Positions 3,394-58,874 of a stretch of 62,461 nucleotides of DNA are shown here, in pieces; the stretch's first letter is position 1; every line of letters begins with the position of its first letter. Under the pieces are notes generated by a model. That model was not told the origin of the DNA, made no database searches, and was given only the letters and a program-made list of their open reading frames with translations. The stretch is from a virus (taxonomy: Duplodnaviria; Caudoviricetes), in IMG/VR virus record IMGVR_UViG_3300027719_000005, positions 1 to 62,461 of that record; one strand, 5' to 3'. The position numbers were made by a program, and so were the translations under genes.

Positions 3394-4137
3394 ATGAAAA
3401 CAGAAAACGTTCAATTTAATTTTTCAGCGGGTATGAATAAGGCCGAGGTAATTATCCGCGAGGTAAGCACCGTTAATGAACTTCCGGTTAAGGCTCCGAT
3501 AAAAACCAACATATTTGGAACAATTGGAGCTCCTTACGCTTTTCTCTCGAAGCGGAAAGATGTTAAAGAGCAAATTGATCAAAATAGGTGCCATATCCTT
3601 GTTGACCGTAATCAAATTAGTATTATACTAATTATCAATGAGGATGAAGAGTACCATAGGGGAACAGTAATCGGAAGTCTTGCGTTTAACCCAAAATTTG
3701 AGGAGTTCAGAATTAATAATGATAAGGTTTGGACTCCTACGCAGCTCGGCATGTTCTTTAAGATGAACAGGGCTTTCTTCCCAGAAAGGGATGTTAATAT
3801 GAAGCTGGTTTCTGACCTTATGAACTTCACAGCCAATGTTAACAACAACATTGAAAGATCGGCAAATGAAAAAGGTGATCGGGTGGATAAGTTTGAGCAA
3901 GTGGTTAACTCCAATCTACCGAAGTCTTTCAACCTTGTAATCCCAATATTCAAGGGTATGCCAGCAGAGAATATTGAGGTTGAGACTTTCGCTCAGGTTA
4001 ACGGCAGGGAAGTTTCATTTGCCCTTATTTCTCCAGGCGCAATGTCAACACAGGAGGAAATACGCAACAGGATTATTGATGAGCAACTTAAATTAATTGC
4101 TGAAATCTGTCCTGAGATAGCAATTATTGAGCAGTAG
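3394..4137 (+). CDS. Conserved hypothetical phage protein (possibly DUF2303/YfdQ-like)
   Basis: 247 aa, LPKSFNLVIPIFKG motif; family assignment tentative. Confidence 0.55.
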   Translation: MKTENVQFNFSAGMNKAEVIIREVSTVNELPVKAPIKTNIFGTIGAPYAFLSKRKDVKEQIDQNRCHILVDRNQISIILIINEDEEYHRGTVIGSLAFNPKFEEFRINNDKVWTPTQLGMFFKMNRAFFPERDVNMKLVSDLMNFTANVNNNIERSANEKGDRVDKFEQVVNSNLPKSFNLVIPIFKGMPAENIEVETFAQVNGREVSFALISPGAMSTQEEIRNRIIDEQLKLIAEICPEIAIIEQ

Positions 4138-4221
4138 TAACACTTGTGGTGTGTATTGCATAAACATCAGAACGTGGGAGGGGAAATGCAATACACACCT
4201 TTATGTTTAATATTAAGAACC

Positions 4222-4425
4222 ATGAAAATATTCGTAGAATCAAACGGCAATGTTCACTTTTCTGGAGACGAAGAGGGCAAATTAGAATTATTTACACAGA
4301 GAGATGTGATCATAAACACAATTGATGGATCGCTTGCCTTAAAGGAGGGTGGTGGAGTTTTTGACGATATAGAAGCCTATTCTATTAAGGTTGATGAGTA
4401 TCTGAAAAGTTTAAATGGTAATTAA
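4222..4425 (+). CDS. Hypothetical protein
   Basis: ORF 4144-4425; ATG at 4222 (MKIFVES) has the better A-rich context. Confidence 0.5.
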   Translation: MKIFVESNGNVHFSGDEEGKLELFTQRDVIINTIDGSLALKEGGGVFDDIEAYSIKVDEYLKSLNGN

Positions 4426-4436
4426 TAACTAAAATC

Positions 4437-4640
4437 ATGGCAGAAAGATTAAAATTATTTGTATGGGAAGATGCTTTATCAGATTATACTGATGGGATTA
4501 TGTTCGCATTTGCTCCAGATGTTGAAACTGCAAGAGAATTAATTATAGAGAAAGGAGTTGATTCAGAAGAGCCAGATTTATTATCAGAACCAAGAATTAT
4601 AGAACAGCAAGAAGGATTTGTAATATATGGAGGTGGTTAA
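4437..4640 (+). CDS. Hypothetical acidic protein
   Basis: 67-aa ORF with AAAATC-ATG start. Confidence 0.6.
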   Translation: MAERLKLFVWEDALSDYTDGIMFAFAPDVETARELIIEKGVDSEEPDLLSEPRIIEQQEGFVIYGGG

Positions 4641-4669
4641 TTACAAACTTTATTTCTTATTAAAATCAA

Positions 4670-4876
4670 ATGAAAATTGAAGATATAGAACTAGGCAGAG
4701 AGTATTTAAGAATACATACATATCCTGGTCAATCATCACAGCACTTTAAAGCGATAAAAAAAGAGAAAGATCGCGTCCTATTTATTCAAACATTCCCAAA
4801 GGAATTTCATAAAGGATTTGGACAAACCTATACACTGAATAGAATTGAATGTGAAAGATATATTCATCCACTTTAA
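4670..4876 (+). CDS. Hypothetical protein
   Basis: 68-aa ORF. Confidence 0.55.
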   Translation: MKIEDIELGREYLRIHTYPGQSSQHFKAIKKEKDRVLFIQTFPKEFHKGFGQTYTLNRIECERYIHPL

Positions 4877-4899
4877 TTAATTTTTTACGACAACATTAT

Positions 4900-5319
4900 A
4901 TGAATACAATTAATCGAATATACAGAGTGCCTTACATGAAAGATAAATTTTCGTATGTAGGACTTTTAAGGAACGAAAAACGATTTAACATAAACGACAA
5001 AGTATTTTTCTCAATAAATGGAAGTGAAATTGCTTTTGGTCGCATTGTCGGAGTCGAATTGCCTCCAGTTGACAATCCTGAATACCTGTACAAAATTGAA
5101 TTGCCAGAAGAACTTATAAAGCAAAGAATGGAACATAAAGAGTTTTATGAGGGTAAAGAAATTGATAAAGTAATATTGAATTGTGAATCAATTTTTTCAA
5201 CAGTTCAAGAGGCTAAAGAATCAGCTCTAGCAAACCTCGAAAGAATGGCAAGAATACAGCAAAGAGAAATTGAAAAATACTTTGGTCAATTTTCAGAGTT
5301 GTCTCAAGATAATCGCTAA
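4900..5319 (+). CDS. Hypothetical protein
   Basis: 139-aa ORF. Confidence 0.6.
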   Translation: MNTINRIYRVPYMKDKFSYVGLLRNEKRFNINDKVFFSINGSEIAFGRIVGVELPPVDNPEYLYKIELPEELIKQRMEHKEFYEGKEIDKVILNCESIFSTVQEAKESALANLERMARIQQREIEKYFGQFSELSQDNR

Positions 5320-5479
5320 TAATAAATTATAGACTCAGGAAGGGCTTTGCGGGAAGGAATAACAAACAGAAACCAATGAAAAAACAAATACTAATAGCAG
5401 GAAGTTGCTGTAAAATTTGCAAACATATGGGTTTGCGCAGGGATGCGTCAAGTGAAGTTTAATTTAAAATTTTGGATAT

Positions 5480-5632
5480 ATGAAAGCAGGAGATACTATT
5501 ATTTTAGATGACGTTGCAGTAGTTACGGTTGTTTGGTGCAATGAAACACTGATGCAAGTAGAGTATAAAGATTTAACTAGGAGATTGCTTACAATAGCAA
5601 TGTATGACATAAAAATTTTAAAGTCAACGTAA
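5480..5632 (+). CDS. 50-aa ORF not in the ORF track (MKAGDTIILDD...KILKST)
   Basis: Translated by hand; same flanks and same LKST* end as 6985-7173. Confidence 0.6.
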   Translation: MKAGDTIILDDVAVVTVVWCNETLMQVEYKDLTRRLLTIAMYDIKILKST

Positions 5633-5640
5633 CGCAATTT

Positions 5641-5778
5641 GCCTATAACGTTGGTGGTTGGCGTTCGTTGCCGACCTTAATTTAATAGATAAATTAACTT
5701 AAAAGCAGAAATATTATGAATACCGAAAAAGTATCAAAAAAGCAAAAAGGCAATGACGTTAACCACGTGTTACCTGCT
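5641..5778. repeat. attC-like hairpin H1
   Basis: GCCTATAAC 5641-5649; arm 5654-5672 pairs with 5749-5766; GTTACCTGCT 5769-5778. Confidence 0.8.
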
Positions 5779-6009
5779 GTTTTTGATTCTGTTGAACATG
5801 CCGTAAAAACGCTAAAATTAGACAGAAGGCATAAATGGGAGGAATGGAATGGTGAACTATCTTACCCTTACAAATATTCACACACTTGCACTGGTTGCGA
5901 TGGCGGTGGATGTAATGAGTGTGGGTATCACGGTAATTCAATAACTTATGTACCTGTACCAGCCTTTATGCCTGACGGCTCAATTGTCAAAGTGCGTTCT
6001 TTAAAATAG
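5716..6009 (+). CDS. Cassette ORF, Zn-finger-like (CxxCxGxGCxxC)
   Basis: Starts in the H1 loop; stop overlaps the next AGCAGGTAAC box. Confidence 0.7.
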   Translation: MNTEKVSKKQKGNDVNHVLPAVFDSVEHAVKTLKLDRRHKWEEWNGELSYPYKYSHTCTGCDGGGCNECGYHGNSITYVPVPAFMPDGSIVKVRSLK

Positions 6010-6132
6010 CAGGTAACGGTTGCGTATTGGCTTTGCTGCCAACGGGATTATAATTAATAACCAAACACTTTAAATTATGAAGAAAGCATCTAAAAAGAAT
6101 GAGGGCAATAAAGTTAATACGCTGTTACCTGC
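6008..6132. repeat. attC-like hairpin H2
   Basis: AGCAGGTAAC 6008-6017; arm 6022-6040 pairs with 6104-6122; GTTACCTGC 6124-6132. Confidence 0.82.
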
Positions 6133-6403
6133 TGATGCAGTTAAATTAAAGTTAACCCCTAAGCAGAATGCAGTAATTTTTTGCCTTCAAAATGGATGGG
6201 AATTAATTACTGACATGGAAATGTGCGGGGCAATAGTTGCCAATAACACAATGGAATACAGAATAAATAACGGATTATTCTTTAGATTAATAAACATGGA
6301 TTTGATATATCAGGGAGGTAGTGAAACTAGGCACTCTTTTACTTTAACGCCACTAGGCAAAAAATGTATAACGAAGCAAGTTTCATTCAACATAACAAAG
6401 TAG
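6077..6403 (+). CDS. Cassette ORF, possible winged-helix protein
   Basis: LTPKQ...LINMDLI...FTLTPLG pattern; starts in the H2 loop. Confidence 0.65.
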   Translation: MKKASKKNEGNKVNTLLPADAVKLKLTPKQNAVIFCLQNGWELITDMEMCGAIVANNTMEYRINNGLFFRLINMDLIYQGGSETRHSFTLTPLGKKCITKQVSFNITK

Positions 6404-6408
6404 CATTT

Positions 6409-6614
6409 GCAGGTAACGTAGAATGCAAGTGAAGTTTTTTAACCGACTTAAATACTAAAATTATGAACTTTAGAAAAGAATTAGCCAGAGAATTAAACCT
6501 CGGAGCAATTGCGGAAGAAACAATGCTCCAAGATTATATAATAGCCTGTGAAGCGATTGCGGTTAAATACCACAAAGAACAGGTTAAAAAATTGCATTTG
6601 CATAGTGTTAGCAA
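6409..6614. repeat. attC-like hairpin H3 (long coding loop)
   Basis: GCAGGTAAC 6409-6417; arm 6423-6444 pairs with 6582-6603; GTTAGCAA 6607-6614. Confidence 0.8.
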
Positions 6615-6744
6615 GTGCGTGGATGTCGAGCGAGGGCATTCGGTTTGCTGTACTAAGTGTGGTAAATCGTTAAAACCAATATATATGTGTACTGCCTGTG
6701 TAGATACGGAAATGCAAAATAAGTTAAAGCAAACTGATTGCTAA
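6463..6744 (+). CDS. Cassette ORF with C-terminal Zn ribbon
   Basis: CTKC...CTAC; starts in the H3 loop; TAA stop is part of TTGCTAAC. Confidence 0.65.
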   Translation: MNFRKELARELNLGAIAEETMLQDYIIACEAIAVKYHKEQVKKLHLHSVSKCVDVERGHSVCCTKCGKSLKPIYMCTACVDTEMQNKLKQTDC

Positions 6745-6844
6745 CGCTCGTGGTTGATGCCGTTTGTGCGGCGTACTTCCGCACAAAAGCAAGGCATCTA
6801 AACGCCAGCGAGAGCCGCACGAATGGCATTAACCTTTTGTTATT
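6738..6844. repeat. attC-like hairpin H4 (non-coding loop)
   Basis: TTGCTAAC 6738-6745; arm 6752-6772 pairs with 6814-6834; GTTATT 6839-6844. Confidence 0.8.
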
Positions 6845-6984
6845 GGTTGATTGAGTTACGAGTGAAGAGTAATAACATTGGCGTTTATCCACGAGCGTTA
6901 TAGGCAAATTAGCAGACCGAGAGCAAACGTACTTTGTTTGCGTAGGGATGCGTTAAGTGAAGTTTAATTTAAAACATTTATAGT

Positions 6985-7173
6985 ATGGAAATAACAGGCG
7001 CAATAATAATAGTGCAAATAGATAACGACAAGGCTTATCAAGTCGATATAAGTAGCGATAACGTTAAGGCACTTTTAGCTATGTATCAATATAGTAATGA
7101 CTGCTCTATTAAAATACTTGATAAGCCTTTAATCGGTTTGACTTTAACCAAAAATGTTTTAAAGTCAACGTAA
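6985..7173 (+). CDS. Cassette ORF, hypothetical
   Basis: 62 aa inside the segment GTTATAGGCAAATT (6897-6910)...AATTTGCCTATAAC (7177-7190). Confidence 0.65.
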   Translation: MEITGAIIIVQIDNDKAYQVDISSDNVKALLAMYQYSNDCSIKILDKPLIGLTLTKNVLKST

Positions 7174-7231
7174 TGCAATTTGCCTATAACTATGTTATTA
7201 AAATACTTATTTACTAAATAACTGACTAATA

Positions 7232-7462
7232 ATGAATGATATAATTAGTAAATGGGTGGTTAATTATAAGGATTGGCAGATTGCCATAACAGAGGACGAG
7301 AGAGTATTCTGTCTAAAAAGCAATATTGAATTAGTAGAGTACTGGAACAACGGCACAATTTCCTACAGACTCCCAAACACCTCTAAAAGAATAGGCGTTA
7401 AAACAATGAGGGAGAATTGTCAATTAAAGCAGGTAACTATTGAAAAGTATTGTCCATTTTAA
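7232..7462 (+). CDS. Hypothetical protein
   Basis: 76-aa ORF. Confidence 0.55.
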   Translation: MNDIISKWVVNYKDWQIAITEDERVFCLKSNIELVEYWNNGTISYRLPNTSKRIGVKTMRENCQLKQVTIEKYCPF

Positions 7463-7474
7463 TCAAATTAAACT

Positions 7475-7663
7475 ATGAAAACAAGAGTATTTGAAAGTTA
7501 TGGAATTTATATATCAATTGTTTTTGTAAGAAATTTAGACCGTGAACCAGCATGGAGGTTTGTCATCGAAAATGTTGAAGATGTTTTATTTGAAAGTGGA
7601 AAATATTCTGAATATCCCAAATGTGAATTAGAATCGTTAAAGAAAGCTGTTGAGTTTTTATAA
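7475..7663 (+). CDS. Hypothetical protein
   Basis: 62-aa ORF. Confidence 0.55.
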   Translation: MKTRVFESYGIYISIVFVRNLDREPAWRFVIENVEDVLFESGKYSEYPKCELESLKKAVEFL

Positions 7664-7690
7664 AACATTATAGAATAATAAACTAAAACT

Positions 7691-8107
7691 ATGAAAGCAT
7701 CAGAATTAAGAATTGGGAATAAATTTGAATGCATGGGAATGATTCAAACTGTCTTTGAAATTTGCGATAATACCGATAGAGGCAGAATAAAGCAAGCTGG
7801 ATATGAATATATTATTAGGTGTGAGGAAAACGGCAACCAGTATAAACCTATAGAAATTAAGCCAATACCCATAACAGCAGAATTGTTACTACGATTAGGT
7901 TTTAAAAATGATGATGGTGATTTCGTCTTGGAATATAATAGACAAGCGTTTATGATTTCAAAAGCCCAGGATGAAGATTTATTACTTCTTTATCGAGAAG
8001 ATATAGGGTTTTCCTTTAATGTGTTGAAATTTATTGAGCATATTCACGATTTACAAAATTTATACTATGCGCTGACAGGTGAAGAACTTACTTTAAGCGA
8101 CATATAA
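7691..8107 (+). CDS. Phage protein of the ELRIGN...LQNLYYALTGEEL type; paralogue of 62094-62444
   Basis: Shared N- and C-terminal motifs. Confidence 0.7.
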   Translation: MKASELRIGNKFECMGMIQTVFEICDNTDRGRIKQAGYEYIIRCEENGNQYKPIEIKPIPITAELLLRLGFKNDDGDFVLEYNRQAFMISKAQDEDLLLLYREDIGFSFNVLKFIEHIHDLQNLYYALTGEELTLSDI

Positions 8108-8124
8108 ACTAACCCAATACAACC

Positions 8125-8418
8125 ATGAACCAGTACATTAAAATTGCAATCTTAACATTACTCATTACAATATGTGTTAATGTGGCTATCTATGTACCCA
8201 GAATGATAATACTATCAAATTTGGAGTACAAGAGGACTTTTGTTCACTCTGTTTATGTAGGAAGTCTCAACGGTAAATCGAAGGAAATTAACCTTGGAGT
8301 TGTACTGGAAATATCGAAGTATAACGCATGGTTAGCCCGGATGAAATGGTTAAGGAGCCAAGGCTTGAGAGTCTGGATTCCGGTAGATATTGACAAGGAA
8401 ATATTCTATGAGCAGTAA
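8125..8418 (+). CDS. Hypothetical protein with N-terminal TM segment
   Basis: Hydrophobic residues ~5-25. Confidence 0.55.
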   Translation: MNQYIKIAILTLLITICVNVAIYVPRMIILSNLEYKRTFVHSVYVGSLNGKSKEINLGVVLEISKYNAWLARMKWLRSQGLRVWIPVDIDKEIFYEQ

Positions 8419-8439
8419 AATAATTAATACATTTGCCTA

Positions 8440-8715
8440 ATGAACTCCATCGAGCAAAAAATATACAACCATGCCAAGGGAATAATACCTCAAGCATTAA
8501 TTAGGGTAAAGCAGATTGAAACGAAGGCAAGGCTTATTAATATTCCATTCTCTTGTGATGGTTGCATTTATCGCTTAATATTTGACAAAGAGGTCAATGG
8601 GTTCACAAAAATAATTTATTCAAATGTTAAAGGGGGTCATATGACCTTGGAGCGAGTAAGTAGTGTTGGGTATTTTGATGATATTGAGGTGGGTGAAATA
8701 GAAATATGTAGATAG
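8440..8715 (+). CDS. Hypothetical protein
   Basis: 91-aa ORF before a terminator. Confidence 0.5.
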   Translation: MNSIEQKIYNHAKGIIPQALIRVKQIETKARLINIPFSCDGCIYRLIFDKEVNGFTKIIYSNVKGGHMTLERVSSVGYFDDIEVGEIEICR

Positions 8716-8743
8716 ATGGTAGCAGTTTAAATAAAGTTAGTTT

Positions 8744-8773
8744 AAAAAAGAGGAGCAATACCTCTTTTTTTTT
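8744..8773 (+). terminator. Rho-independent terminator
   Basis: AAAAAAGAGG-agcaata-CCTCTTTTTTTTT. Confidence 0.75.
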
Positions 8774-8885
8774 GTGGAATAATGCAAAAAGATATGTAAA
8801 CGACCGTGTTTTTTAGCATAGGCTTTGTTCTTAGGAATAAAATGTAAAAATCAATAAGTTTACCTATATCAATTCTTTTAGTATT

Positions 8886-9092
8886 ATGAATCCTAAATGT
8901 AACGAGTGTGCCTTTAATTGCCCTGAGGTTATTCAGAGCCTTTTAATTTTATCTAATATGGTTTGCGATGTCTGCAATTGCGAAGATGTAACAGAGGAGC
9001 GTAAAATAAGAGTAAAAACTGCCTACCAAATTTTAGAAAAATCAACCCTTGATAAGTGTATAAACAGAGAATGTATATGCATAATTATTTAA
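8886..9092 (+). CDS. Small Cys-rich hypothetical protein
   Basis: 68 aa with several CxxC motifs. Confidence 0.45.
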   Translation: MNPKCNECAFNCPEVIQSLLILSNMVCDVCNCEDVTEERKIRVKTAYQILEKSTLDKCINRECICIII

Positions 9093-9130
9093 CATGCTGA
9101 TATGTAGATAAATACAAATATGCAGTGTAA

Positions 9131-9166
9131 CAATAAAGGTCACTTATGAAACAGTGACCTTTATTG
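9131..9166. terminator. Probable bidirectional terminator between convergent genes
   Basis: 14-bp perfect stem CAATAAAGGTCACT / AGTGACCTTTATTG. Confidence 0.75.
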
Positions 9167-9208
9167 GCTATAAAAGAATATGGATACAGCAGTAATTATA
9201 GGCTGAAA

Positions 9209-11914
9209 TTACCCATTCCATGTAGTTGTTAAATCTGTATCTAGTCTATCCATCTGCATTAGCGTGGGTTTACATCCATGAACTAGCACTGTATATCTGC
9301 ATGATCGCTGTGTTTTGGTAATATGGACATCTACAACAGAGGATTGAATGAACGATTTACCATTGTTCAGGAAGATTAAACCCTCCTCGTTTAGCTGTCC
9401 ATACAGAAGAGTAGTTATCCTTCCATTGTTGCCTGTGATAACCTCTCTTAATACTGCCCTATTGACTTTTTTCTCGTCAGTATTGCCAAATCCACATGGT
9501 CGGCTAATAAGGAGTACTGGTAGGTTAATGCTTTCCTTGCCTAGTTCAACCAGATCAACGCTGTTGTTTCTGCTTATTAAAGCGTAGGTGTTCGGCCAGT
9601 TATTTGCCATCAGGTCGAATGACTCCGATCTCTTGTACCATAAACCAGAGTCGAATCCGAATATATAGGAGTACTGGTAGGTTGGATTGCTAACTATTAA
9701 CTCCTCGTTGATGTAGTCCACCGCAAGGGTGCTACCCTTTAGGTATGTTAAAAAGTCCACCTGGGATAAAGCATCATCATTCCCGAATAGATCAACCATG
9801 AGCGTGTTGAATAGATCGTTATTCACCAGATTATTGCTTACAGGACCGTTAACTGGATTGCTGATTAACTTAAAGGACTCTCCGTACAGGGAGATTATCC
9901 CTTTGTCGGTTGGGAATAGTATTCTCCCATTGTATGAAGTGGCTTTGCCTACCACTACCTCATCAGTTACAGGGATTACTCTTAGAACCATTACTTCGCC
10001 AGTTCCTATCTCCAGCGCAAATACTCCAGTAGTAGTAAATACTATCATGGGGTGCTGACCATATTGGAGCGCGGATAATGGCTTAGAGTTGGATATTAAT
10101 TGCAGGATTGAACCATTCCCCACCCTGTAGGAGTTCTTTGCCTCGAAGTATAGCGGATTATTAACAGCAGATACCTGTATTCGGTTATTGTCGGGAATGG
10201 AGTTAATAAATATATCTGAGGCTATTTCTAGCTCTGTGTACACTGTGGGGTATTTCCATGTCATTTGATTGAACAAATCCCAAGACATCCTCACGTAATC
10301 GGTATGCCTAGTTCTTTCCCCAGAAGTTCTTGTTGTAGAGGTAGGGATTGTTTCATCTATATCGGGCTGATAACCCATTAAAGAAAAGGAGTAGTTGAAA
10401 GAAGGGTGAGGTGTCATATCAGACGAAAAAGCAATGTATGTACTTCCTCCATCCGGCTTTACCAGAATATTAAACTTAACAGCCCTGCTATCTGGATAGT
10501 AAATACAGAAAGGAAGGTTTAAGTGAGTATCGCTATTAGCATAACCATCGCTTCGTAAGTGTATATTACCCACAGAGGTTTTCAGGATAAACTCAAACCA
10601 AACAGTCTTACTAACTCCTCCCGGATATGAAGCGGTATTGTATGATTTTGGTACCGGAGAAAAGTAGTTGATTATGCCTCCCATCCATAGTCGGGAATTA
10701 TAGATAAAAGACGATGATGCATACATTCTGATGTCTGATAACTGCTCTGTAGGCATAGAATCCTTGGTGTGAATGGCCGTAATATCCCCCAAACTTATTG
10801 TTGTGGGCGATACAATATCTAAATCATCTAAAGGAATTGTATGAACCTTGTAGAGCTGCGTGTCTTTAATCATTAGGTCGGGTGTAATGTTTTCATCATC
10901 CTCAATACTCTCGTTTAATTCCCAGGGAGAAACATTTCCACCGTTACTTCGTCCGTAATAATAATCATCTCTTTGGTTATTGTACGATTTGATTCTATGA
11001 TAAACCCTGCTCATATAAATATTTACACCCATTACCAACCCTTTATATTGAGAATTTAACTCCTCTAACACTCCTGAGTTAATACTTGGTATAGAGTACT
11101 GCAATGTGCCGGGATCAAGGGCTACAAATACTTTATCATTGCTACTAAATACGGCTACCTGTACTTCGCTAGAACTATCATACTTATCTGTGATTTGACC
11201 TCGAATGTGCATAATAATAGGCTTGGAGTGACCTACTATAGAGCCATCAAATAGCTCATAGGCGTACCGAATCACCACGTAACCGTTAATCATTCCCTCC
11301 TTCTCCCAGTTATTATAGGCAATATCAAGTACGGTCATTATCTGATCATACCTTTCATCCGATGAGCTATCGTAGTCTATTCTACCAACCGGAACGGCAG
11401 TTGATACTCCATTAGCCATGAGCCAAGAGGCATAATCTTTAAAGTTGTCATACCCTAGGTATGCACTATTAGGCTTGTTGTGAAAGTTAATTTCTAGCGG
11501 TTTGGGTACTGCATCCCCAACGTATCGGTAGTTGTTTATTTCAATATCGTAAAGGATATAGTGCATCTTCTTACTGCTATCGTCAAATACGATGAGAATA
11601 TTCCCTATCGTTTCGAACCTTACCTGCTTACTGGTGCCAAGGGTAAATATATCCACAAGAACACTCCCTTGCTTTTGCTTAATCTTTCCGGTAGGCTCAT
11701 GGTACACCACAATAAAAGAACCTGAGTTTGTATTGTGAACACACATAGCCTCAATTCCGCTTCCAATGGTGAACTGGTTGGTTTTGCCCTTCACGTTCTG
11801 CCACTTCCCATTCTTGTACCGCGCGTTAATCAACTCTTGGCACTCTATCATCTCGGCCTTATTGGTTAGGCTACTCCTGTTTATCCCCTTTAGGGTTGAC
11901 TCTACTGTTGCCAT
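9209..11914 (-). CDS. Tail tubular B / P22 gp10-like virion stabilisation protein
   Basis: 901 aa, beta-rich; IQVSAVNNPLYF...QYGQHPMIVFTTTGVFAL motif; next to the ejection genes. Confidence 0.7.
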   Translation of the reverse strand: MATVESTLKGINRSSLTNKAEMIECQELINARYKNGKWQNVKGKTNQFTIGSGIEAMCVHNTNSGSFIVVYHEPTGKIKQKQGSVLVDIFTLGTSKQVRFETIGNILIVFDDSSKKMHYILYDIEINNYRYVGDAVPKPLEINFHNKPNSAYLGYDNFKDYASWLMANGVSTAVPVGRIDYDSSSDERYDQIMTVLDIAYNNWEKEGMINGYVVIRYAYELFDGSIVGHSKPIIMHIRGQITDKYDSSSEVQVAVFSSNDKVFVALDPGTLQYSIPSINSGVLEELNSQYKGLVMGVNIYMSRVYHRIKSYNNQRDDYYYGRSNGGNVSPWELNESIEDDENITPDLMIKDTQLYKVHTIPLDDLDIVSPTTISLGDITAIHTKDSMPTEQLSDIRMYASSSFIYNSRLWMGGIINYFSPVPKSYNTASYPGGVSKTVWFEFILKTSVGNIHLRSDGYANSDTHLNLPFCIYYPDSRAVKFNILVKPDGGSTYIAFSSDMTPHPSFNYSFSLMGYQPDIDETIPTSTTRTSGERTRHTDYVRMSWDLFNQMTWKYPTVYTELEIASDIFINSIPDNNRIQVSAVNNPLYFEAKNSYRVGNGSILQLISNSKPLSALQYGQHPMIVFTTTGVFALEIGTGEVMVLRVIPVTDEVVVGKATSYNGRILFPTDKGIISLYGESFKLISNPVNGPVSNNLVNNDLFNTLMVDLFGNDDALSQVDFLTYLKGSTLAVDYINEELIVSNPTYQYSYIFGFDSGLWYKRSESFDLMANNWPNTYALISRNNSVDLVELGKESINLPVLLISRPCGFGNTDEKKVNRAVLREVITGNNGRITTLLYGQLNEEGLIFLNNGKSFIQSSVVDVHITKTQRSCRYTVLVHGCKPTLMQMDRLDTDLTTTWNG

Positions 11915-14456: not shown

Positions 14457-17400
14457 ATGTCCACTGAAAATACAATAGCCAAAATACTTGCTGAACGTAA
14501 TAGCAAAACTCCTGTTAATACAAATGTTGATGATATTGATAAGGGCTACGAGGAATGGAAAGCCCAAAACAATCCATCAAAAGCACCCGAAAAACAGGAG
14601 GATATTACCACCCTAAACAGTGAAATATCCTCACTGAGCAATAGAGTAAAGGAGTATGATGCTATTGATAGTGGCAAAAATAACAGTAGGGCTACAACTA
14701 CAGGGATGTATTCAGGGGGTATGAGCGTTCTGGATGCAGTAAAACCGCTAAAAGAAACCAACGATAAGTACACCGAACTAAGCAAAACTATCGTACAGGA
14801 TAGGGAGCGTTTGGCAGAGCTAAGCAAGAAAAGAGACGCTATAATTAGCGGCTCCGTTGATCCAATAATACAGCAGGTAAAATCGAAAAAAACGGAAATA
14901 TCCGATCAACTAGAAAGATCATACTCTGATTTAGAGAATACGCTTAATGAGGAGTATGACACAGCCGATCCGTTGAAAGCCTTGGAGTACGAGAAGAAAA
15001 GGCAGGAAACCACAAGGCTGATTGAAAGGAAGCAAGCCTTAACTCTATCTGAGGACTATCTTGTCAGAATGAAAGATTTGGCTAATGTTTCTCCAGATAA
15101 ATACATACAGGCACTAGGACAAGGATTTGCAAACCATGACTGGGTAGATATTGCCACTCTAGGGTTAAAGTCAATGGAGGATAACTTCAATCTTGCCAGT
15201 ATTTCAAAAAAAATTATGGCCGGAACCGCCACAGAGGAGGAGAAGGTTGCCTTAACTCTGTACAGCCAATTTAACCAGTTAGCCGCAACCAAGGATAAAC
15301 CTGTTACCTACGATATTGCACAGTCATTCATCCAATCTCTACCCTATATGGCTGATATTGCCATATCTGGAGGGGTTAGGGGAGCGATTACAAAGGGTAT
15401 TACAAAGGGAATTGGAAGAACGGTAGTTAACCTGTCCGATAATGTAGCAGGGATTGTTGCCAATAAAACGGCTCAAAAAGCGGTTAAAGGAACAATAAAG
15501 AATACTGCTAAAATAGCCACTCAGGCCACAGGGGCAATTGCTTCTTCTCCATTGCAGATGAATATGTACAATAACTTTTCCGAAAATAGACTAGCAAACT
15601 ATGTTATTGACTACGACAATGCCGGAGAAGTAATGGTGAGAGAGGCCAAGGATTCTGAAAATGTAGCAGAATCTATGATTAGAGCTATGGCATTAACAGC
15701 ATCCGCAACATTCTCCGAGAGTAGCGGTGTAATTTTCGATGATGCCTTTTCTGCCATTGGGAAAAAGTTCTCTCTGAATAAGCTTAACCCCCATTTTCAA
15801 AACAGCCTTAGTCGAGGTTTTGGTGCAGTAAAGAAAGCCACCAGTTTAAACCAAACATTCGGGGAGGTTGGTGAGGAGTACATTAATAAATTTACGGACA
15901 TTCTAGTTACAAACCCACGAGAAGAGGATGCCAATCAGGATGAGTGGGCCAATTTCTTCAACACAAGGGAAGGATTAACGATACTTGGATCAACCTTGAT
16001 TACTCAAGGAATGTTCAAGGCGCAATACGCTCCACACTTGGTTGACTTAGCAAAGACAAAATCCATCGTTAAGGAGAATGAAACCCTATTGCCGGAAGAA
16101 ATAAGGGCTAAGATAGTTCAGGCCATGAGTGCAAAAACGGCCAACGAGCAAGTTGATGGACTGGTGAACCTAAAATTAGGGAGCATTGAGAACCCTGAGG
16201 AGCGCAGAAGTGTTGTTAACTACATCAAGAGCAAAATTGAGTATGATTTTGTAAAAGGAGTAGCGCAGGGCGATCAGGAAATATACCGGATTAGAAAGGT
16301 AGATGATAGCGTGGCCTCCATTGCTCATAAAGAATCAGGCAAGGTTGTTATTGTTACCGAAACAAACCAGCAAGACCCCAACAACGAGGCTTATGTTATA
16401 GCAGGGAACATTGAAGGGGAGAAAACCGACCTTGTTACCATTATTACCAGCGAGGGTGAAAAGAAGATGGTATCCATAGCCAATCTTAGCATAACAAATA
16501 CGGTTGATGTAAAAGAGCTAAGGGATAACCTGGTAATTGCCGAACTCTCGAAGTTAGAACAGGAAACAGCCCAAGAGGAAGGGATTGAAAAAGCGGAATC
16601 TTTAGGGATCAATGCAGAGGAAGTACCCAGTATTGGGGAGGAGTTACCATTGCCCGATGGAAGTACCATTAAAATAGTATCCGTTGATACCAATGGGGTA
16701 TCATTTGATGTGCTTGACGCGGAGGGAATACCCGCCATGACCAAAAGCCTCAGCTTTGAGGAGTACTCTCAGATGGTTCAACCTACCGCAGAGAATCAAC
16801 CAGTCGAGGGTGGACAACCTGTAATATCCGAGCAGGACACTGAACAAGCACCTATTAGCGAAACCCCTAAAACCATCAAGACCTTAACCGACGGTAAGCA
16901 TAATTTAAGCGTTGCTTTGGATGAGAATAACGAGGGTATTTCTCAGGAGGTATATGATAACCTTCCCGATGCGGAGAAGGTGGTTAATTCCTTGTCGAAA
17001 CGATTCTCCAAGTTGGAGTTTAACATAGTGGACCAATCGGGCGATGATGTATTCTCCCCTGATGCCTATGTTATTTCCGTTAAACCAAGATCAGTTAAAA
17101 GTGTAATTAATCAGCAAGCCAATGAAACCATTGAAAGTGCTATCACCCCAGAAGAAAGCATCACTCCTGAGGCAGTCGTTGATCAAGTTAGCGAACAAGC
17201 AGAAGAAGGACAAATTAAAGAAGTAACCAATGAGCAAGACATACAAGGACAACAAGCATATCCCGAAATTGAGAACCAGGAACAAGTTAAGGGTGAAGAA
17301 ATACGACAGGAAGAAGGACAAAAACCTATCGGAGTAGATGAATTAAATAACACCCAAGCAGAAGAGTTAATCCCTGTTGATGATTCCTCCATAGGTAAAC

Positions 17401-20400
17401 TTAACGAGGAAGAAATAGCCCTTGTTCAGAGCAAACTTGATGATCCTGACGAACCACAGGATCAGAAGGAATACTGGGTAGAGGATATTGAAAAGTTAAA
17501 GACCAACCCTAAAAAGTACTGGAGTGAGTTTTTGGTACAGAAAGGAAATACTGCAAGGGAGGATCAAATTCTATCTATTCAGGACTATTACAACAACAAG
17601 CCTATTATTCAAGACCTAGACGCTCACGTTTCGGAGATTGACAAGAAAGCAGAGATTCAGTCCGAGGAGAAGAAAGTTAATATTGAACCTACTGAGGCGC
17701 AGAAAGAGGCAGGAAACTACAAGAAAGGCCATGTGACTATTGGTGGTTTTGATATTACCATTGAGAACCCTAAAGGATCGTTCCGAAAAGGAAAAGATCG
17801 TAGCGGGAAGGAGTGGAAAGTAAAGATGAACAACACCTACGGTTACTTTAAGCGAACCAAAGGGAAGGATGGGGAGCAAATAGATGTATTCCTTGGGGAA
17901 AATCCAGAGACAGGCAGAATATTCGTGGTGGATCAACTGGGAAAATCTGGAAAACTAACCTTATTTGATGAGCATAAGGTTATGATGGGCTTTAAATCCG
18001 AGAAGGAAGCCAAGGAAGCCTATAAATCTAACTACTCAAAGGACTGGGATGGGTTTGGAGCAATTACCGAAATGTCTAGGGAAGAATTTAAGGCGTGGAT
18101 TGGTGATGGTACCCGAACTAAAAACCCTGTAGAGTGGAAACAGAAACAGAAGAAGTCTAACCCTAACGCTTTTCTACCTAAACAGGCCATTGAATTGCTT
18201 AAATCTGATCCAAACAGTATTGATGAGGCCATTATTCAGCATATACTAAACGGAGGTAAGTTTAGCCGGAACGACTATATACGCCATTCAGGGTTTATGG
18301 ATGGCAGTAAGGAGCTTAACACCGCATCGTTTAACGGCCTGATAAACGGAAAAGATCAGGAGGAGGGGATGCAGTTTGATACATTCCTTGGTACACTAGG
18401 GAATGATTTTGGCATGAACGATGGCATTGATTTAACCAACGCTATTGTTGATGTGCTGAAACTTTCCACCAGAGCCAACCTAGCGAGACGATTAATTGAG
18501 GCATCGGGTACCAGTCAGGATAATCACCCACACCTAAACGATGATTACGCTCAAGGATTAGCGGAACAGGAGGAGGCATTGCGTTTAGCGGAGGATGAGT
18601 TAATGAACGAAGTAGCCGTACTTTTTTACTCAAATTATCCTCAAATAACTAACCAAGAATATGCAGAATTATTTAACTTTGGAGAAAATGAATACAATGA
18701 GCAACGAAATGAACCAACAGCCGAAGGAGACATTCGAACAGTTCAAGGAGAGACTGGAGAAGATGGTGGAGTCGATAATGCAGGAGACAGGCAAGACGAA
18801 ACTGGAAGTGTACCGGGAATTGAAGTGGATGGGCGAACAGAAGGCGAAGGAAGTGCAGAAGTAAACCCCCAAAACCAAGTTCCCGAAGTCGGGAATATGG
18901 TAGAATCACAAGAAGTTGATCGTGTTCCTGATACAAAGGAAACGATAGAAACTACAAAAAAAACATTTTTATTCATGTCCGATAGCCCTATGCACCAAGC
19001 AAGGGCTTTAGGTGTGTTAACTAGAAACACAAAGGTAGATGGCGTAGTAATGCCAATTTACCAATGGATTGAAGGATTACCAAGCGGATTAGGGGTAGGA
19101 AAACAAAAGATTTATACCAAAAACGCTAAATCTGACGATGGATCAGTAGAAAAATTAGTCTTAGGAAATTATATTGTAGGTTCAAAAGCAGAACAAGATT
19201 ACTATAACTATATTCAAACTGGGGGTGTTTCTTACACTCAATTCCTTGCAGACAAGAAAGTGCAGGATGAAATCATTGCAGAGAAAAAAAGAATTGAGAA
19301 AGAGGCGCAGGATAAGATATTTGAAGATAAGCGCAGAAATGATAATGAGGCATACAAAAAAGCTAAGGAAGATCAAATAAAAGAACTTATCGAGAAAGGA
19401 AAACAGCCAACAATTGATAAGTTTACCGAATCATTTAAGAATAAAATAAAACAACTTCAATCTAAGCCTCAAACAAGTGCGGTAAAAGAAGAAATAGCCT
19501 ACAATAACAGAATGATAGAGCAAACTATCAGTCAGGTTGAAAGCAGTTACGATATTGCAACAACCATGTATGAAGTTATTGAAGGAGAAGTTAAGCCAAA
19601 ATATACTTTCAGTATAGGGGATAAGGTATTGTTCCCTGCAACAATTGACCACAAACAAACTCTTATTGAAACTGTCATTGAGTCAAGCAGATCGGATAAT
19701 AACGATAAGATTATTTTTAAGGTAGCGAAAAAAGAAGGCATAGTAAATCCATACAGTTCATACGATGGATTGAGACCTGTTATAGATAACGACCAGTCGA
19801 GTCCAGAAAATAAAAACCCTGAGAACGTTTCTAATGTCGATGCAATCAAATCTGTAATATCCTTACAGGACGAGCAGGAAACTACCATTAGTAGGCTTAA
19901 ATCTATTGCGGCTCAACCACAGAAAACCGCCAAGGATAATCAGGACAAGACACAACTAGAATACAAATTAGGACAGATTGAGGAAAAACTTAACAAGGCT
20001 CAAGCCTTAGTTAATATTCCTGCCGAAAAATTACCCGCAGTTACTAAGTTAGTACGACAAGCATTGGCCGAAGAGAAAGCCATTGATGCTAGGATTGAGT
20101 CGTTAAACTCCCAGAAAAAGAACAAGGAGAAGGAATTTAATACCCGCAATGGTGTATTTGGGGATAATAAGGAGATTGCCGACAAAGCAAAAGGGCAACA
20201 ATCCCTATTTGCTGGAGATATATTTGAGGCCAGCACTAACACTTTAGCCAATACCATTAAGCCTATTAACGACAGTATAGCCAAACTGGAGGAGGAGAAA
20301 CAGCGCAATGCTAAAATCCTTACCGATAAGGTTGAACTGGAGTTACAGGGAGCGCAACAGGAGATTAAGGAGGAGGTTAAAGCGGAACCAAAAGGAGACC

Positions 20401-23400
20401 TATTTCTAAAGGCAAGTGAAATTATTGAAACAAGCCCAAAAGGCAGGGTATTGTCAGATATTAATGAATTAATACACACTGCAAAGAACATACAACAATT
20501 AAAACAACTATTAGAACTTCCTTATATAAAACAAACATTCGGGTTGGTTCAAGAAGTTAATAGTGCAATTAACTATCTTGAAAGACATCCTGAAAAGCAA
20601 GAGCAACAGGTTAATCAAAGCGAAAAAGGCGATTTTGACTTTGAGGCTCTTTTTGAAGAAACGCCATCAAATGAAGTCAATGGGAAACAAGAACCGGACA
20701 ACTACGAAGATTGGTATCAAAATAGCAGTTTTTCTAAGAAATGGGCCGCAACTAGAGCTGAGGCTATAGAGAAGGTAAAACAAACCTACATTAATGCTTT
20801 ACGGACAAAGAATGAATGGGAGAGTAAGGATTATAAAAATCACGGAGGAAGCGTAGAGGTTGGTAAAAATAAAGATGATTTCGATGGAGGAAATGTAGGC
20901 ATTGACTATATCAACAATAAGCGAAAAAAAGATGCGATTAGTAATGCAATATCGGATACAGAACAGGCTATTACCGATTTGAAAAGTTTAAAACTGTCAC
21001 AATCGGAGATAGATAATTTTATTTCAAGCATAAGCAAAGCAGAACAGCCAAAAGTTAAGCCCGAATTTGCAGGGAGTGTTCTTGAAACGGAGAGTAAAAC
21101 AGAAAACAAAACCTACTCTATACCAGAAACATTCAACCTATCAACATTCTCCAAATTTAGCACAGAGTTAAGCAATGGTAATGTTCAGGTAGATGATTTT
21201 AAGAAAGCCTTTAACGTACTAATTGAGAGTAAGGCTTCAATTATTGAGGAGTTATCCAAGAAAACAAAAGCGGAGTTACTAGCCAACATGAACAGCATGG
21301 GGCAGTATCGCTACAAGAACGAAAATAAGGACTCTATAGTTAAGGCTTTATTCAGCGATATGCTGATGACGTTTTCTTTTGGTAGTATTTCCTACAATAT
21401 GGGCGAAACCATAGAACAGGCTATAACTAAAAAAGTTGACGCTACTACACAGGAGCAAATTAACGACTATGTGGACGAGACCAAGAAGCGTAGGGAGGAG
21501 TATTTGGAGCGTGTTAAAGCCCACAAGAAAGCACTATCAAACCCAGAAACGCTTGAGGAGTTTAAGGTATTCATTAAGTATAACGGAATTGAGAAACTAT
21601 CTCCAGAGCAAAAGGCTACCTACGATGATTTAGTTACCGACAAGGTACTTGAAAATAGAAGTGACGATGCTAAAAAAGGAGCGATAGTAGAGAAGGTAGA
21701 TTTAGGTGACACAGAAATGTCTATTGCTGAAACTAAGCACACCAAAACTGGCATACCTTTATTTGTTGTTCGTTTATCTGCAAGAATACCTGAGGAACAG
21801 TACAAGGAGTTGAATAAAAAGGCAAAACAACTTGGAGGTTACTACTCATCATACGCAAAAGATGGAGCGATACCGGGTTTTCAATTCAAAACTTTAGAAC
21901 AAGCCCAGGCGTTTAGTGGACTTAAAACTCAGGATGCCTCAAATATTGATATAAAAGAGGAGGTAAAGGAGCAAAAAGTAGAGCAGAAAATCTCCAAACT
22001 AAGGGAGAACGCTCAAAAGATTATAGAGAGGGTTGACTCTGAGTTAAACAGAGACAGGCTAACTAATACTGCAAAGAGAGCAAGAGAAGCCGCTTCTACA
22101 GAGGCTAGGTTGAACGAGGAGAAGCGTATTGCTCAAACCATGCTTAACATTGCCGATGCAATAGAGAATGGAGATGTAAAACTACTCGATGGCATTAAGG
22201 CAAAAACTCACATAGAACTACTGGATAACCTTATTAAATCAGCAAAATACGCTGAAATAAGTAGCAAGGCTGAAAGTTATTCTGATAGACAGAAGTATGA
22301 AGGAGAACCCGCGACACTTGAGACTATTGAATACCTGAAAAATGGATTCTACCCAAGCATTTACGGAACAACGCTGAAAGATGTAATTAACAAGGTTGAG
22401 AACAAGCCCGGATTAAAACAACTTGCGACTAAATGGAGTAAGAAGTTATCTGGACTAGGAGAATACGACAGTTACCAAGTAACAAATGATACAGATATAT
22501 CCGAAATAGAGCAACTATTCAACGGGTTATCAGAGAGCGATAAGAAGTACAACCGTATAGGCACAGTATTAGCCGACTTTAACAGGCTAAAGACAATGGG
22601 TATTGAAAACGACTCCATGCTACGTGCCGCACTTAGGGAGTACATTCAGTTCCGTGGCAAAAAACAGGCTCCTGACAAAGTTAAGGAGTTAGAACGAGCC
22701 ATTGTTGGCCGTGCAAAGAATTTGGGTGTTGACTTCTTTCCGACTCCAGCAGAGACCGCTAAGATGATGGTTGAACTAGCAGGGGTTACTGAGGATATGG
22801 AAATACTTGAGCCAAGCGCAGGGAACGGCAATATAGCAGACCAAATTAAGCAAGTAGGTGTAATGCCTGATGTTATAGAAATATCCTCAGAATTATCCGA
22901 AATACTCAAGGCTAAAGGCTACGATGTAGTGGCAGATGATTTTATGGAGTACACTGAAAAGAAGTACGATAGAATCATAATGAATCCTCCTTTCTCAAAT
23001 GGAATGGATGGAGACCATGTAAAACACGCCTACGAAATACTTAAACCGGGAGGGAAACTTGTTGCTATTGTTGGAGAGGGAACATTTATTAGGAACGATA
23101 AAAAAGCCACAGCATTTAGGGAGTGGCTTGAAGAGGTTGGAGGCAATGAGACTAAACTAGAAAGCGGAACATTCCAAGATAAAACCTTGCTTAATACCAC
23201 TGGAGCAAACGCTAGAATTGTTGTTATCGAGAAAGAAGGTGAATTTATTGATGATACACCAGATGAAACTGTAGATAAACAGGAAGTAGTTAACGAGAAT
23301 GTTTCTCAGGATAAAAAAGAGGTTGAACAAGAACAGTTAGAGGCAGTAGAGCCTATAAATGATATTCAGGACTTTGGGGAGAAGGTAGGAGGAGCCAGAA

Positions 23401-33747: not shown

Positions 33748-34086
33748 ATGATGAACAAATTTCTAAGCATTGTATTTATTGTTTTTGTTGTTGCAATAGC
33801 ATTTTCTTTCAGTTTTGTTGATCTTAAAATACCTGTATTCACATGGAAGGATATTGCATTGATGGCGTTATTTTATGTTGCGATATGGGTAGCCTCTATG
33901 TTGCTGGTAAGTATATTTACAGAGGAAAGCAACCCTAAAAACACTATTACTATTCCTCTGACAATGTTTTTTATTATGCTATCGTTCCCATTTTTTAAAA
34001 CAGGGGGATACTTTATAATAACTGGAATACTTTGCAGTATTAACGCCTTAATATCCCCCTATATTATTATTAAAAGGGAGGATTAA
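33748..34086 (+). CDS. Small multi-TM membrane protein (moron-like)
   Basis: About four hydrophobic segments; own promoter motif after a terminator. Confidence 0.6.
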   Translation: MMNKFLSIVFIVFVVAIAFSFSFVDLKIPVFTWKDIALMALFYVAIWVASMLLVSIFTEESNPKNTITIPLTMFFIMLSFPFFKTGGYFIITGILCSINALISPYIIIKRED

Positions 34087-34445
34087 TACACTTTTTCGTT
34101 TTTAAACTCTTTTACTTCCCAATCCTCGGCCAGCATATCGGTTTGAGATGCTAACCAACCAGTAACGATAGATTTTGATGCTGATACCATGTTGATGTTC
34201 GGGAGTCTTGTAATGGTATTTTCATCCCCAGGCACAAATAATCCTAATTTTACTCCATCCATAGAACTACCATGATCAGGAGAAATTTGCTCTCCATTTT
34301 CAAACCCTAGTAGTTTATGATCGAATGATCCTTTATTCAGGTATATGTACATACCTTTTCCATTCCAACCTTGTCGGGCAACACATTCCCCTTTTTTAAG
34401 GAGTTCTAATGCCTGACCAAATGTTAATGATTTTACTTCGCTCAT
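34083..34445 (-). CDS. tad2: DUF2829 family protein, Tad2-like (Thoeris anti-defence sponge)
   Basis: TFGQALELLKKG..VARQGWNGKGMY...WLASQTDMLAEDW signature. Confidence 0.8.
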   Translation of the reverse strand: MSEVKSLTFGQALELLKKGECVARQGWNGKGMYIYLNKGSFDHKLLGFENGEQISPDHGSSMDGVKLGLFVPGDENTITRLPNINMVSASKSIVTGWLASQTDMLAEDWEVKEFKNEKVY

Positions 34446-53261: not shown

Positions 53262-53473
53262 ATAGAATTTTTTATAAAATAATTGAAAAATAATTACTAA
53301 AATATTTGTAAATACAAACTTTATTGTATTTATTTGTATCCATATACTAATATACGAAATAAATACAACAAGACGCAATACGATACGGTATTTATTTGAC
53401 AAATAAGCATTTCTAGCTTGTAAGCAAGCCAAAAACAGATATGAACACATAGTATTAACATAAAATTATAGTA
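53262..53473. promoter_or_regulatory. Divergent immunity/operator region
   Basis: Palindrome TTTGTAAATACAAA 53306-53319; GTATTTATTT at 53326 and 53388, inverted at 53357. Confidence 0.55.
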
Positions 53474-58597: not shown

Positions 58598-58870
58598 ATG
58601 TATTTCAACACGACAAAACTAAAAGGTACTATACTTAGTCTTTTCGAGGAGAAGGCCAAGAACCAGGATGAGGATGTGCTAAGAGCATTTAGAATACTCA
58701 AAACAGCCTCCCCTTCGAAGGTGTATGATTACATACAAACCAAGAGTCCACTAACCTCCATCAGAAGGTCTATTTACAACCTGACCAAAGAGGGAAGATT
58801 GACTAAAACCGATAAAAAGGTCATCGGGAAATACGGCAGACCTGAATATGTATGGATTTTTAAAAACTGA
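58598..58870 (+). CDS. Winged-helix protein
   Basis: LTSIRRSIYNLTKEG...GKYGRPEYVW. Confidence 0.65.
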   Translation: MYFNTTKLKGTILSLFEEKAKNQDEDVLRAFRILKTASPSKVYDYIQTKSPLTSIRRSIYNLTKEGRLTKTDKKVIGKYGRPEYVWIFKN

Positions 58871-58874
58871 TATT

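Follow-up and report, generated by a model that had tools for sequence, protein, structure and literature searches.

Repeats around two small phage genes as probable fragments of an intercistronic hairpin family at recombination joints

The window analyzed here is a complete virus record, IMGVR_UViG_3300027719_000005 (Duplodnaviria; Caudoviricetes), of 62,461 bp with direct terminal repeats of 127 bp, and belongs to a temperate tailed phage. Our subject is a pair of repeat-flanked units within a block of about 20 small plus-strand open reading frames (ORFs) at 4.1-9.1 kb, at the distal end of a replication and recombination operon. Unit 1 carries ORF1 and unit 2 carries ORF2, each between a left and a right flank, and the DNA between the units holds three hairpin elements (E2, E3 and E4), the ORFs that overlap them, and a branched structured element that we call X (Table 1).

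Table 1. Features of the small-gene block and of the phage's integration and recombination genes (window coordinates)
Feature	Positions	Strand	Remarks
Left flank, copy 1	5419..5469 (core 5431-5469)	+	hairpins GCAAAC..GTTTGC and GCGCA-GGGA-TGCGT, then A/T-rich 5' leader of ORF1
ORF1	5480..5632	+	50 aa; family core ends ..IKIL, KST* tail from right flank
Right flank, copy 1	5608..5649	+	final codons, stop, R-box GTAAYGCAATTTGCCKATAAC
E2	5646..5772	+	TAACG, 3-nt bulge, long stem, TGTTA; -32.6 kcal/mol, z -3.35
ORF 5716	5716-6009	+	97 aa, zinc-ribbon family; N-terminal ~20 residues encoded within E2
E3	6008..6133	+	11-bp base AGCAGGTAACG/TGTTACCTGCT, GTT bulge, 14-bp stem; -43.2 kcal/mol, z -6.72
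ORF 6077	6077-6403	+	108 aa; N-terminal 18 residues only in common with ORF 5716
E4	6412..6612	+	TAACG...AGTGTTA; -45 kcal/mol, z -2.79
ORF 6463	6463-6744	+	93 aa; stop codon is the TAA of the TAACG opening X
Element X	6740..6912	+	173-nt branched hairpin, outer stem GCTAACGCTCGTGG/CCACGAGCGTTA, 5' hairpin, variable apical domain
Left flank, copy 2	6923..6974 (core 6936-6974)	+	continues element X directly
ORF2	6985..7173	+	62 aa; conserved family, LKST tail native
Right flank, copy 2	7149..7190	+	in wastewater relatives, start of X follows at once
Tyrosine integrase	50892-52079	-	Bacteroidota-type domains Arm-DNA-bind_5 + SAM_5 + Phage_integrase
S24 repressor	52356-53450	-	
SbcC-like ATPase	54120-56060		near RecT-like gene
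RecT-like single-strand annealing protein	56071-56907	+	
Metallo-beta-lactamase-fold protein	56907-57620		near RecT-like gene
SSB	58848-59291		near RecT-like gene

Comparing the two units with each other, we found the left-flank cores to be identical at 37 of 39 positions (95%), within a gapped homology of 52 nt that takes in each full copy (88%, blastn E 2e-11), and the right flanks to agree at 38 of 42 positions (90%, E 3e-10), with 33 matches in a 34-nt core, which bears out the near-identical flanks proposed in a preliminary description of this DNA. Few non-coding repeats of the genome, the terminal repeat among them, are longer than these flanks. For the 20-mer AAGTGAAGTTTAATTTAAAA, two occurrences at up to 3 mismatches compare with 0.03 expected, and the 16-mer GCAATTTGCCTATAAC matches three times where 0.88 are expected, the latter being a weak test alone (6 of 100 shuffles reach 3). 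A DNA alignment of the two units stays at background level in the middle and has sharp borders at the flanks. The imperfect inverted repeat that had been claimed at the inner flank edges is likewise real, covering 22 nt in unit 1 (5452-5473/5612-5633, 82%) and 23 nt in unit 2 (6962-6984/7147-7169, 83%), and it reaches beyond the common flank with letters that differ per unit (AAAATTTT/AAAATTTT versus AAAACATTT/AAATGTTTT). A third copy of the inner-edge motif AAGTGAAGTTT, also anticipated, lies at 6427-6437 inside E4, and a C>T difference between the left flanks (5438 versus 6943) preserves a G.U pair on the plus strand. We also considered, and dropped, the idea that the left flank terminates a mini-ORF, which would begin at 5368 (28 aa) for one copy and at a TTG at 6878 (30 aa) for the other, given one synonymous and one non-synonymous change and a poor second start. 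The GGGA-capped hairpin of the left flank is also conceivable as an antiterminator of the lambda nut/boxB or HK022 put kind.

Judged by their relatives, ORF1 and ORF2 are real and mutually unrelated small genes. Their BLASTP alignment (E 4.9) takes in only the common tail, so that the dissimilarity of two proteins ending alike in LKST*, as first described, stands. The ORF1 family comprises 9 representative clusters at E<=0.001, whose tails diverge in sequence and length after IKIL and among which only the window's own protein ends in KST (1 of 9). The ORF2 family, by comparison, comprises 18 clusters (64-100% identity; almost always 62 aa), with LKST tails in 12 and KST in 14 of the 18; an IMG/VR search for this family gave 141 pattern matches, none confirmed. 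Because LKST is native to the ORF2 family and so rare in that of ORF1, unit 1 looks recombinant with the 3' end of unit 2. Unit 1 would then be an ORF1-family gene that gained the leader and 3' end of a unit-2 cassette (6936-7190) by recombination, the coding part of the right flank having been grafted on at a TTTTA microhomology. The two ORFs thus fall into separate families rather than being diverged homologs, and parts of the flanks occur elsewhere, as set out below. Deletion of the block of about 1.5 kb between the direct repeats, also envisaged at the outset, is plausible, and the contigs of the probable source run contain no such joint.

Turning to the DNA between the units, we found that E2, E3 and E4 open 0-13 nt past the preceding stop codon and close with TGTTA within the next ORF, and that E2 and E3 both have a 3-nt bulge after TAACG. 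E2 holds a terminator-like hairpin (5656-5676) together with the start codon and first 19 codons of ORF 5716, and its antisense fold is weaker (-27.0 kcal/mol, z -1.67). E3 holds the start and first 19 codons of ORF 6077 (antisense fold -36.4 kcal/mol), and E4 the start and about 46 codons of ORF 6463 in addition to the third AAGTGAAGTTT. The N-termini of ORF 5716 and ORF 6077 are identical at 11 of 18 residues (E 4e-5), within a DNA repeat of 52 nt at 75%, and the two proteins are alike only in these first 18 residues because the hairpins close inside the next ORF. The same overlap accounts for the family of ORF 5716, whose 20 members have a conserved body from VLPxVF on and hypervariable N-termini up to that point because GTGTTACC is the 3' hairpin arm. 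One protein (P0019) carries the body of ORF 5716 at 92% under another leader, and a second (P0039) matches its leader at 20 of the first 22 residues but has a different body, with at most a very remote relationship to that of ORF 5716. In a related locus, L013, homology with the window covers 5744-6020 at 88% and ends just past GGTAACGG.

Several of the small cargo proteins (5716-6009, 6463-6744, and others in a further locus, L012) carry CxxC...CxxC zinc-ribbon or DnaJ-like CxxCxGxG motifs. A string ..SVS(K/N).. also recurs in several unrelated small ORFs (6604-6612; L010 2445-2455; L012), encoded by GTGTTAGCAA, the hairpin 3' arm, and is a nucleotide-level motif that mimics a protein motif.

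Element X folds with a z of -4.63. The R-box at 7177-7190 is exactly complementary to the 3' end of X, GTTATAGGCAAATT (14 of 14 between 6897-6910 and 7177-7190), and the one at 5636-5657 nearly so. A metagenome pattern scan found X twice more, on one 78.7-kb contig: at L010, 89% identical over 214 nt, and at L012, 82% identical on the opposite strand; a third pattern match, L011, proved to be a GC-rich bacterial terminator matched by chance. The gene surroundings of X are unrelated, since tblastx of L010 and L012 against the window finds nothing else in common. An ORF at L012 lies between sequences complementary at 15 of 15 positions, one closing X and the other opening the next element. The R-box has four occurrences in the two genomes, in a frame that differs relative to the upstream ORF; those outside the window (L010 815-858; L012 562-583 of the reverse complement) lie in another reading frame. 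The 5' part of left flank copy 2, to 6952, matches L010 2149-2193 at 89%. Between the window and L010, pairing-preserving changes occur both between the R-box and the 3' end of X (T:A in the window, G:C in L010) and in the small hairpin of the left flank (GCAAAC/GTTTGC in the window, GCATC/GATGC in L010). Exact-pattern scans of IMG/VR for the flanks, the R-box and X, and a species-genome scan for the X 3' block, returned nothing. With X treated as a pseudo-protein, a protein collection gave 1 candidate, none scored, and IMG/VR gave 12 pattern matches, none confirmed. Within X, the segment 6757-6775 can pair with 6779-6798 as a local hairpin, preferred in the L010 and L012 folds, or with 6814-6832, preferred in the window fold, all three segments being conserved in the three copies; judged from these folds, the alternative pairings could be a structure switch or three copies of a protein-binding site.

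Contigs of four sequencing runs were aligned on 4800-7800. In the probable source run the stretch is unbroken and has no alternative joint, and two wastewater runs yielded many short contigs (63-650 nt) that cover only 5608-5780 and 6719-7223, at a depth of up to 392 that sums over organisms and is no measure of RNA level. Their ends cluster near 5652/5772 and 6935-6939/7184-7190. In the first of these regions the contigs span only 5652/5656-5762/5772, which is E2, and one contig has, from arm to arm, 18 other letters where the window has 5777-6004. Unit 2 has a homologue that spans 6935/6939-7184/7190 with 30 differences in about 250 nt. In run X4 this homologue is followed behind 7184 by GCTAACGCTCGTGG, with which the structured stretch at 6740 opens, and another contig of that run, with ..CGTAACGCAATTTGCC (the right-flank R-box), runs into 6740. 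The real repeat unit is therefore right flank plus X plus left flank, present in the window as one nearly full copy (6740-6974) and as truncated copies at 5419-5469, 5608-5657 and 7149-7190.

Evaluating related loci, we found these elements to belong to a wider family with a common anatomy: hairpins of 60-200 nt that open 0-16 nt past the upstream stop with ..AT-N6-TAACG, close with (T/C)GTTA, usually bear a 2-4 nt bulge on the 5' arm after TAACG, and have variable interiors that do not align. Almost all small ORFs of L010 and L012 have behind them a stable hairpin of 60-170 nt with the base (G)CTAACG...(T/C)GTTAG(C) and an unrelated interior, and relatives of the 97-aa ORF led to eight IMG/VR loci, some with the same elements. 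Counting as stop-proximal any TAACG within -4 to +30 of a stop codon (random 34-nt windows of the same sequences give 2-7%), we observed such a site at 4 of 15 ORFs in the window block (4100-9200), at 3/8 in L010, 3/10 in L012, 10/20 in L014, 2/12 in L013, 4/24 in L017 and 1/11 in L016; none was seen at the 37 ORFs of L015, L019 and L020, the 32 ORFs of two other window parts, or the 79 ORFs of the distant relatives L004, L006 and L009. The dinucleotide AT stands at -8/-7 of TAACG in 27 of 66 plus-strand sites and in 3 of 28 on the opposite strand, and the stop codon lies inside the 5' box at offset 0 in 11 of 26 cases. Six loci found through a neighboring 247-aa protein (60-64% identity) have no DNA in common with the block and lack the elements.

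The richest carrier found here of TAACG hairpins is a complete 93-kb IMG/VR genome (G001), in which AATGGTGGCTAACGG occurs at up to 3 mismatches 15 times forward and twice in reverse (3 for the control), all at 69-92 kb. That region of roughly 23 kb contains 68 small plus-strand ORFs, many of them trailed by hairpins, and its ORF ends carry 17 families of direct repeats. One such module, D1, sits on five mutually unrelated ORFs (best BLASTP E 0.29), a 361-aa methylase among them, whose tails, such as ..EALS*, are alike. The same flank on a different gene, as first described for the two units, is thus the rule in this phage group. Two spacers of this genome (L021 5033-5105 and 5594-5666) have TATATTTG some 20 nt downstream of CTTG, an arrangement that to the eye resembles a Bacteroidota-type promoter.

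Taken together, we think it probable that the flanks are fragments of this intercistronic hairpin family, whose conserved blocks of 20-50 nt act as joints for gene shuffling and whose hairpins have a function in the sense transcript. Homology borders, between phages as well as between units in one phage, fall at these blocks, and because homology between relatives starts and stops there the elements are shown to be recombination joints. Since one gene can draw its last codons and stop from the 5' arm, and the next its start codon and first 20-46 codons from the loop and 3' arm, the elements straddle gene ends, and unrelated ORFs therefore share their final codons (LKST*) or their first 20 or so. 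Of the cassette chassis with swappable cargo that had initially been proposed, the part that survives is the same flanks around unrelated cargo; there is no dedicated two-flank chassis, the flanks being fragments of composite spacers. The exchange itself would be ordinary short-homology recombination, plausibly through the phage's RecT-type annealing protein. RecT-type annealing systems use about 40 nt of homology, and the RecT-like, SbcC-like and SSB proteins of this phage may constitute the shuffling machinery.

How the elements persist is a matter of their possible work in the sense transcript, where we infer a role at the RNA level in cistron punctuation, message stability or translational coupling; a look-up of datasets that contain the stretch listed no RNA sample. 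Well-formed hairpins closed by TAAC...GTTA lie on the gene strand in 19 of 20 cases; the sense fold is the more stable in 18 of 19 (median difference -7.3 kcal/mol, Wilcoxon p 0.0007), G.U pairs number 86 in sense and 50 in antisense folds (p 0.003), and an earlier hand-picked set favored the sense fold in 12 of 13. In such a transcript the elements could act as punctuation between cistrons, stems of at least 20 bp would serve as RNase III substrates or 3' stabilizers, and a ribosome that terminates at a stop abutted by the 5' arm would unfold any element whose loop holds the next start codon, and so couple translation. A T-run is absent from most elements and present only at 5656-5676, which counts against a terminator role. 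A sigma-70 scan of the plus strand of the shared flanks gave one weak 9/12 match (5473-5502), and the Bacteroidota-type pattern TTTG-N17-23-TAnnTTTG matched four times in the genome with none at 4-9.3 kb, and phage-specific promoters may still be present.

Several points weigh against this combined picture of joints and transcript function. The strand test is partly circular in that the motif by which hairpins were selected is itself strand-specific, and G.T pairs also stabilize single-stranded DNA, so that RNA and single-stranded DNA are not separable by it. The elements are heterogeneous, a minority enclosing the start codon that follows, and this is hard to square with one designed function. 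Conservation of the 5' motif and a fixed bulge suggests, from sequence comparison, a specific binding protein. The stems of X are invariant in its three copies and show no covariation (a double change in 1 of 53 pairs). The wastewater joints rest on short contigs at 85% likeness, and the sequence between the two sides is known for one of the four joints. Finally, because distant relatives do without them, the elements are not essential to this genome layout.

Weighing other origins for the repeated flanks, we regard plain tandem duplication of one unit, with a middle since diverged beyond recognition, as scarcely credible: the two units do lie 1.5 kb apart in the same order and orientation, but ORF1 and ORF2 each come with a separate set of relatives in other assemblies (48-84% identity), these sets fail to align with each other, and flanks at 90-95% beside a background-level middle are impossible by uniform divergence. 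What rules it out for us is the origin of the codons in the right flank, which are at home in the ORF2 family and reached an ORF1-family gene by grafting. A second possibility is that selfish palindromic mobile elements of the MITE, REP or Correia kind insert beside phage stop codons and leave their ends as flanks, as could be suggested by the 82-89% conservation of X in otherwise unrelated neighborhoods, by conserved terminal inverted repeats, and by many copies per genome with truncated ones common. Yet no transposase, HUH/Y1 or TnpB-type Pfam family appeared among the 66 window ORFs scanned (a scan confined to the window), the ends are common and the interiors not, unlike MITE families, the elements are biased in orientation relative to genes (15 forward, 2 reverse), the polar 5' module includes upstream codons with no 3' complement, and no target-site duplication was evident by eye, without a formal test; we consider this unlikely. 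Alternatively, X (6740-6912, perhaps with the left flank) may be an independent structured non-coding RNA gene of which the flanks are conserved parts. Its very stable fold, its conserved branched consensus structure, the two mutually exclusive and sequence-conserved pairings of 6757-6775, the highest wastewater contig depth over its 5' half, and about equal scores in six tblastx frames, which indicate that X is not coding, would all fit. Against this, Rfam returned no match at gathering score in the whole window and none even at E<=5 across 5000-7600, three full copies are known and do not covary, X ends as the general hairpin family does, and depth does not measure RNA, leaving the idea improbable in our view.

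A site-specific cassette system resembling integrons deserves comparison in more respects. In it, a recombinase would bind two boxes (TAACG/GTTA and GTATAT/ATATAC) split by the bulge, and small ORFs would be inserted and excised. Integron attC sites combine R''/R' boxes (RYYYAAC/GTTRRRY), an unpaired spacer, L boxes, bottom-strand folding and a G|TT crossover. Their likeness to the phage arrays lies in co-oriented small ORFs with an imperfect palindrome behind each one (AAC...GTT ends, variable center), in the stop that often falls in the 5' box (the 11 of 26 above), and in ORFs set between exactly complementary half-sites (14/14 in the window, 15/15 in L012); one element ends in GTTAGGC, the asymmetric bulge is conserved, and the contig with 18 letters in place of the cargo at 5777-6004 would fit an exchange of this type. 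The phage elements nevertheless are longer, overlap coding regions, among them the beginning of the following gene, and give the better fold on the coding strand where attC uses the bottom strand; their 5' boxes rarely fit RYYYAAC. They also have no fixed crossover, the breakpoint preceding GCTAAC in X, following TAACGG in L013 and falling within the left flank in L010. No IntI is present: the sole tyrosine recombinase scores 29.1 bits against a cut-off of 265 for the integron integrase model TIGR02249, has a Bacteroidota phage-integrase architecture and lies about 17 kb off, across the record ends. We therefore hold an attC-like system to be doubtful, and give an equally low chance to the proposal that TAACG...GTTA hairpins, through a conserved two-box base and a fixed bulge on the 5' arm, are folded recognition sites for a dedicated recombinase or nuclease. 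Were the latter true, this would be an integron-like, IntI-free cassette system that writes common leaders and tails onto small, probably host-takeover or anti-defense genes.

Returning to short-homology exchange at hairpin joints, the reading we favor, its closest known counterpart is the PeSL (promoter-early stem-loop) cassettes of T4-type phages, of which the present elements would be a lineage-specific version. As described by Arbiol et al. 2010 (PMC2839356) and Comeau et al. 2014 (PMC4122927), PeSLs are composite stem-loop motifs that reach from the stop of one small ORFan to the next start, built from a strong sigma-70 early promoter and a short G/C stem-loop terminator, and recombination at them inserts, deletes and replaces genes. 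The likeness is a repeated stem-loop motif between small ORFs of a plastic region, whose copies are breakpoints of gene replacement, gain and loss; the differences are that here our scans found no host-type promoter in the flanks, the hairpins measure 60-200 nt with a TAACG/GTTA base and bulge and reach into coding sequence, and the phage is temperate with a probable Bacteroidota host. Full-text literature searches for phage intergenic palindromes, REP-like elements and hairpins after each gene, so far as the returned text extended, gave no description of a TAACG-hairpin family.

Two further groups of structures share single traits with the elements. REP/BIME, ERIC and Correia sequences are likewise intercistronic palindromes near stops, for which roles in mRNA 3' stabilization and processing have been proposed or shown; these, however, are chromosomal, shorter (20-40 nt for REP) and mobilized by RAYT/Y1 transposases, whereas here the setting is a phage small-gene block with no such enzyme among the window ORFs. 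The RNase III hairpins of T7 early genes and the processing stalks of rRNA resemble the elements in that conserved hairpins or long-range stems with an asymmetric internal loop bracket cistrons; the present elements are longer, far more variable and in some cases hold the next start codon, and processing is here predicted only.

If our reading holds, recombination at conserved intergenic joints, known from lytic T4-like phages, would extend to temperate phages with a probable Bacteroidota host, and in an unusual form, as long sense-strand hairpins whose conserved base reaches into genes and gives unrelated small proteins identical N- or C-terminal peptides. For annotation, it follows that common tails and leaders do not imply homology. 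The TAACG-hairpin motif would also serve as a sequence handle for the plastic accessory-gene blocks of these phages, and the block offers a natural example of gene cassettes exchanged through homology arms of about 40 nt.

As for the wider genome, PHROGs and Pfam assigned a family, with function not known, to only 1 of the scanned small ORFs at 4.9-9.1 kb, and GenBank phages contained no blastn match to 4800-7800. Besides the genes of Table 1, the window encodes NinG, a P22-type portal and an SU10-type capsid protein. Because the nearest relatives of the capsid protein are those of three Bacteroides temperate phages (28-29% identity), a Bacteroidota host is likely. Beside the portal gene, a 5574-aa ORF (14457-31181, plus strand) has segments resembling DarB antirestriction protein, DNA methyltransferase and peptidoglycan hydrolase, and this giant virion-type product is probably an injected multi-domain virion protein. 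ARAGORN called a tRNA-Arg(CCT) at 9671-9747 (plus strand), antisense within a 901-aa ORF (9209-11914, minus strand) and probably a false positive. A Tad2-like (Thoeris anti-defense 2) domain occurs in a 120-aa protein (34083-34445, minus strand; E 2.5e-22), and the tail-fiber gene (1097 aa) contains a 99-nt repeat in three copies at 67-81% identity (41483-42898, plus strand).

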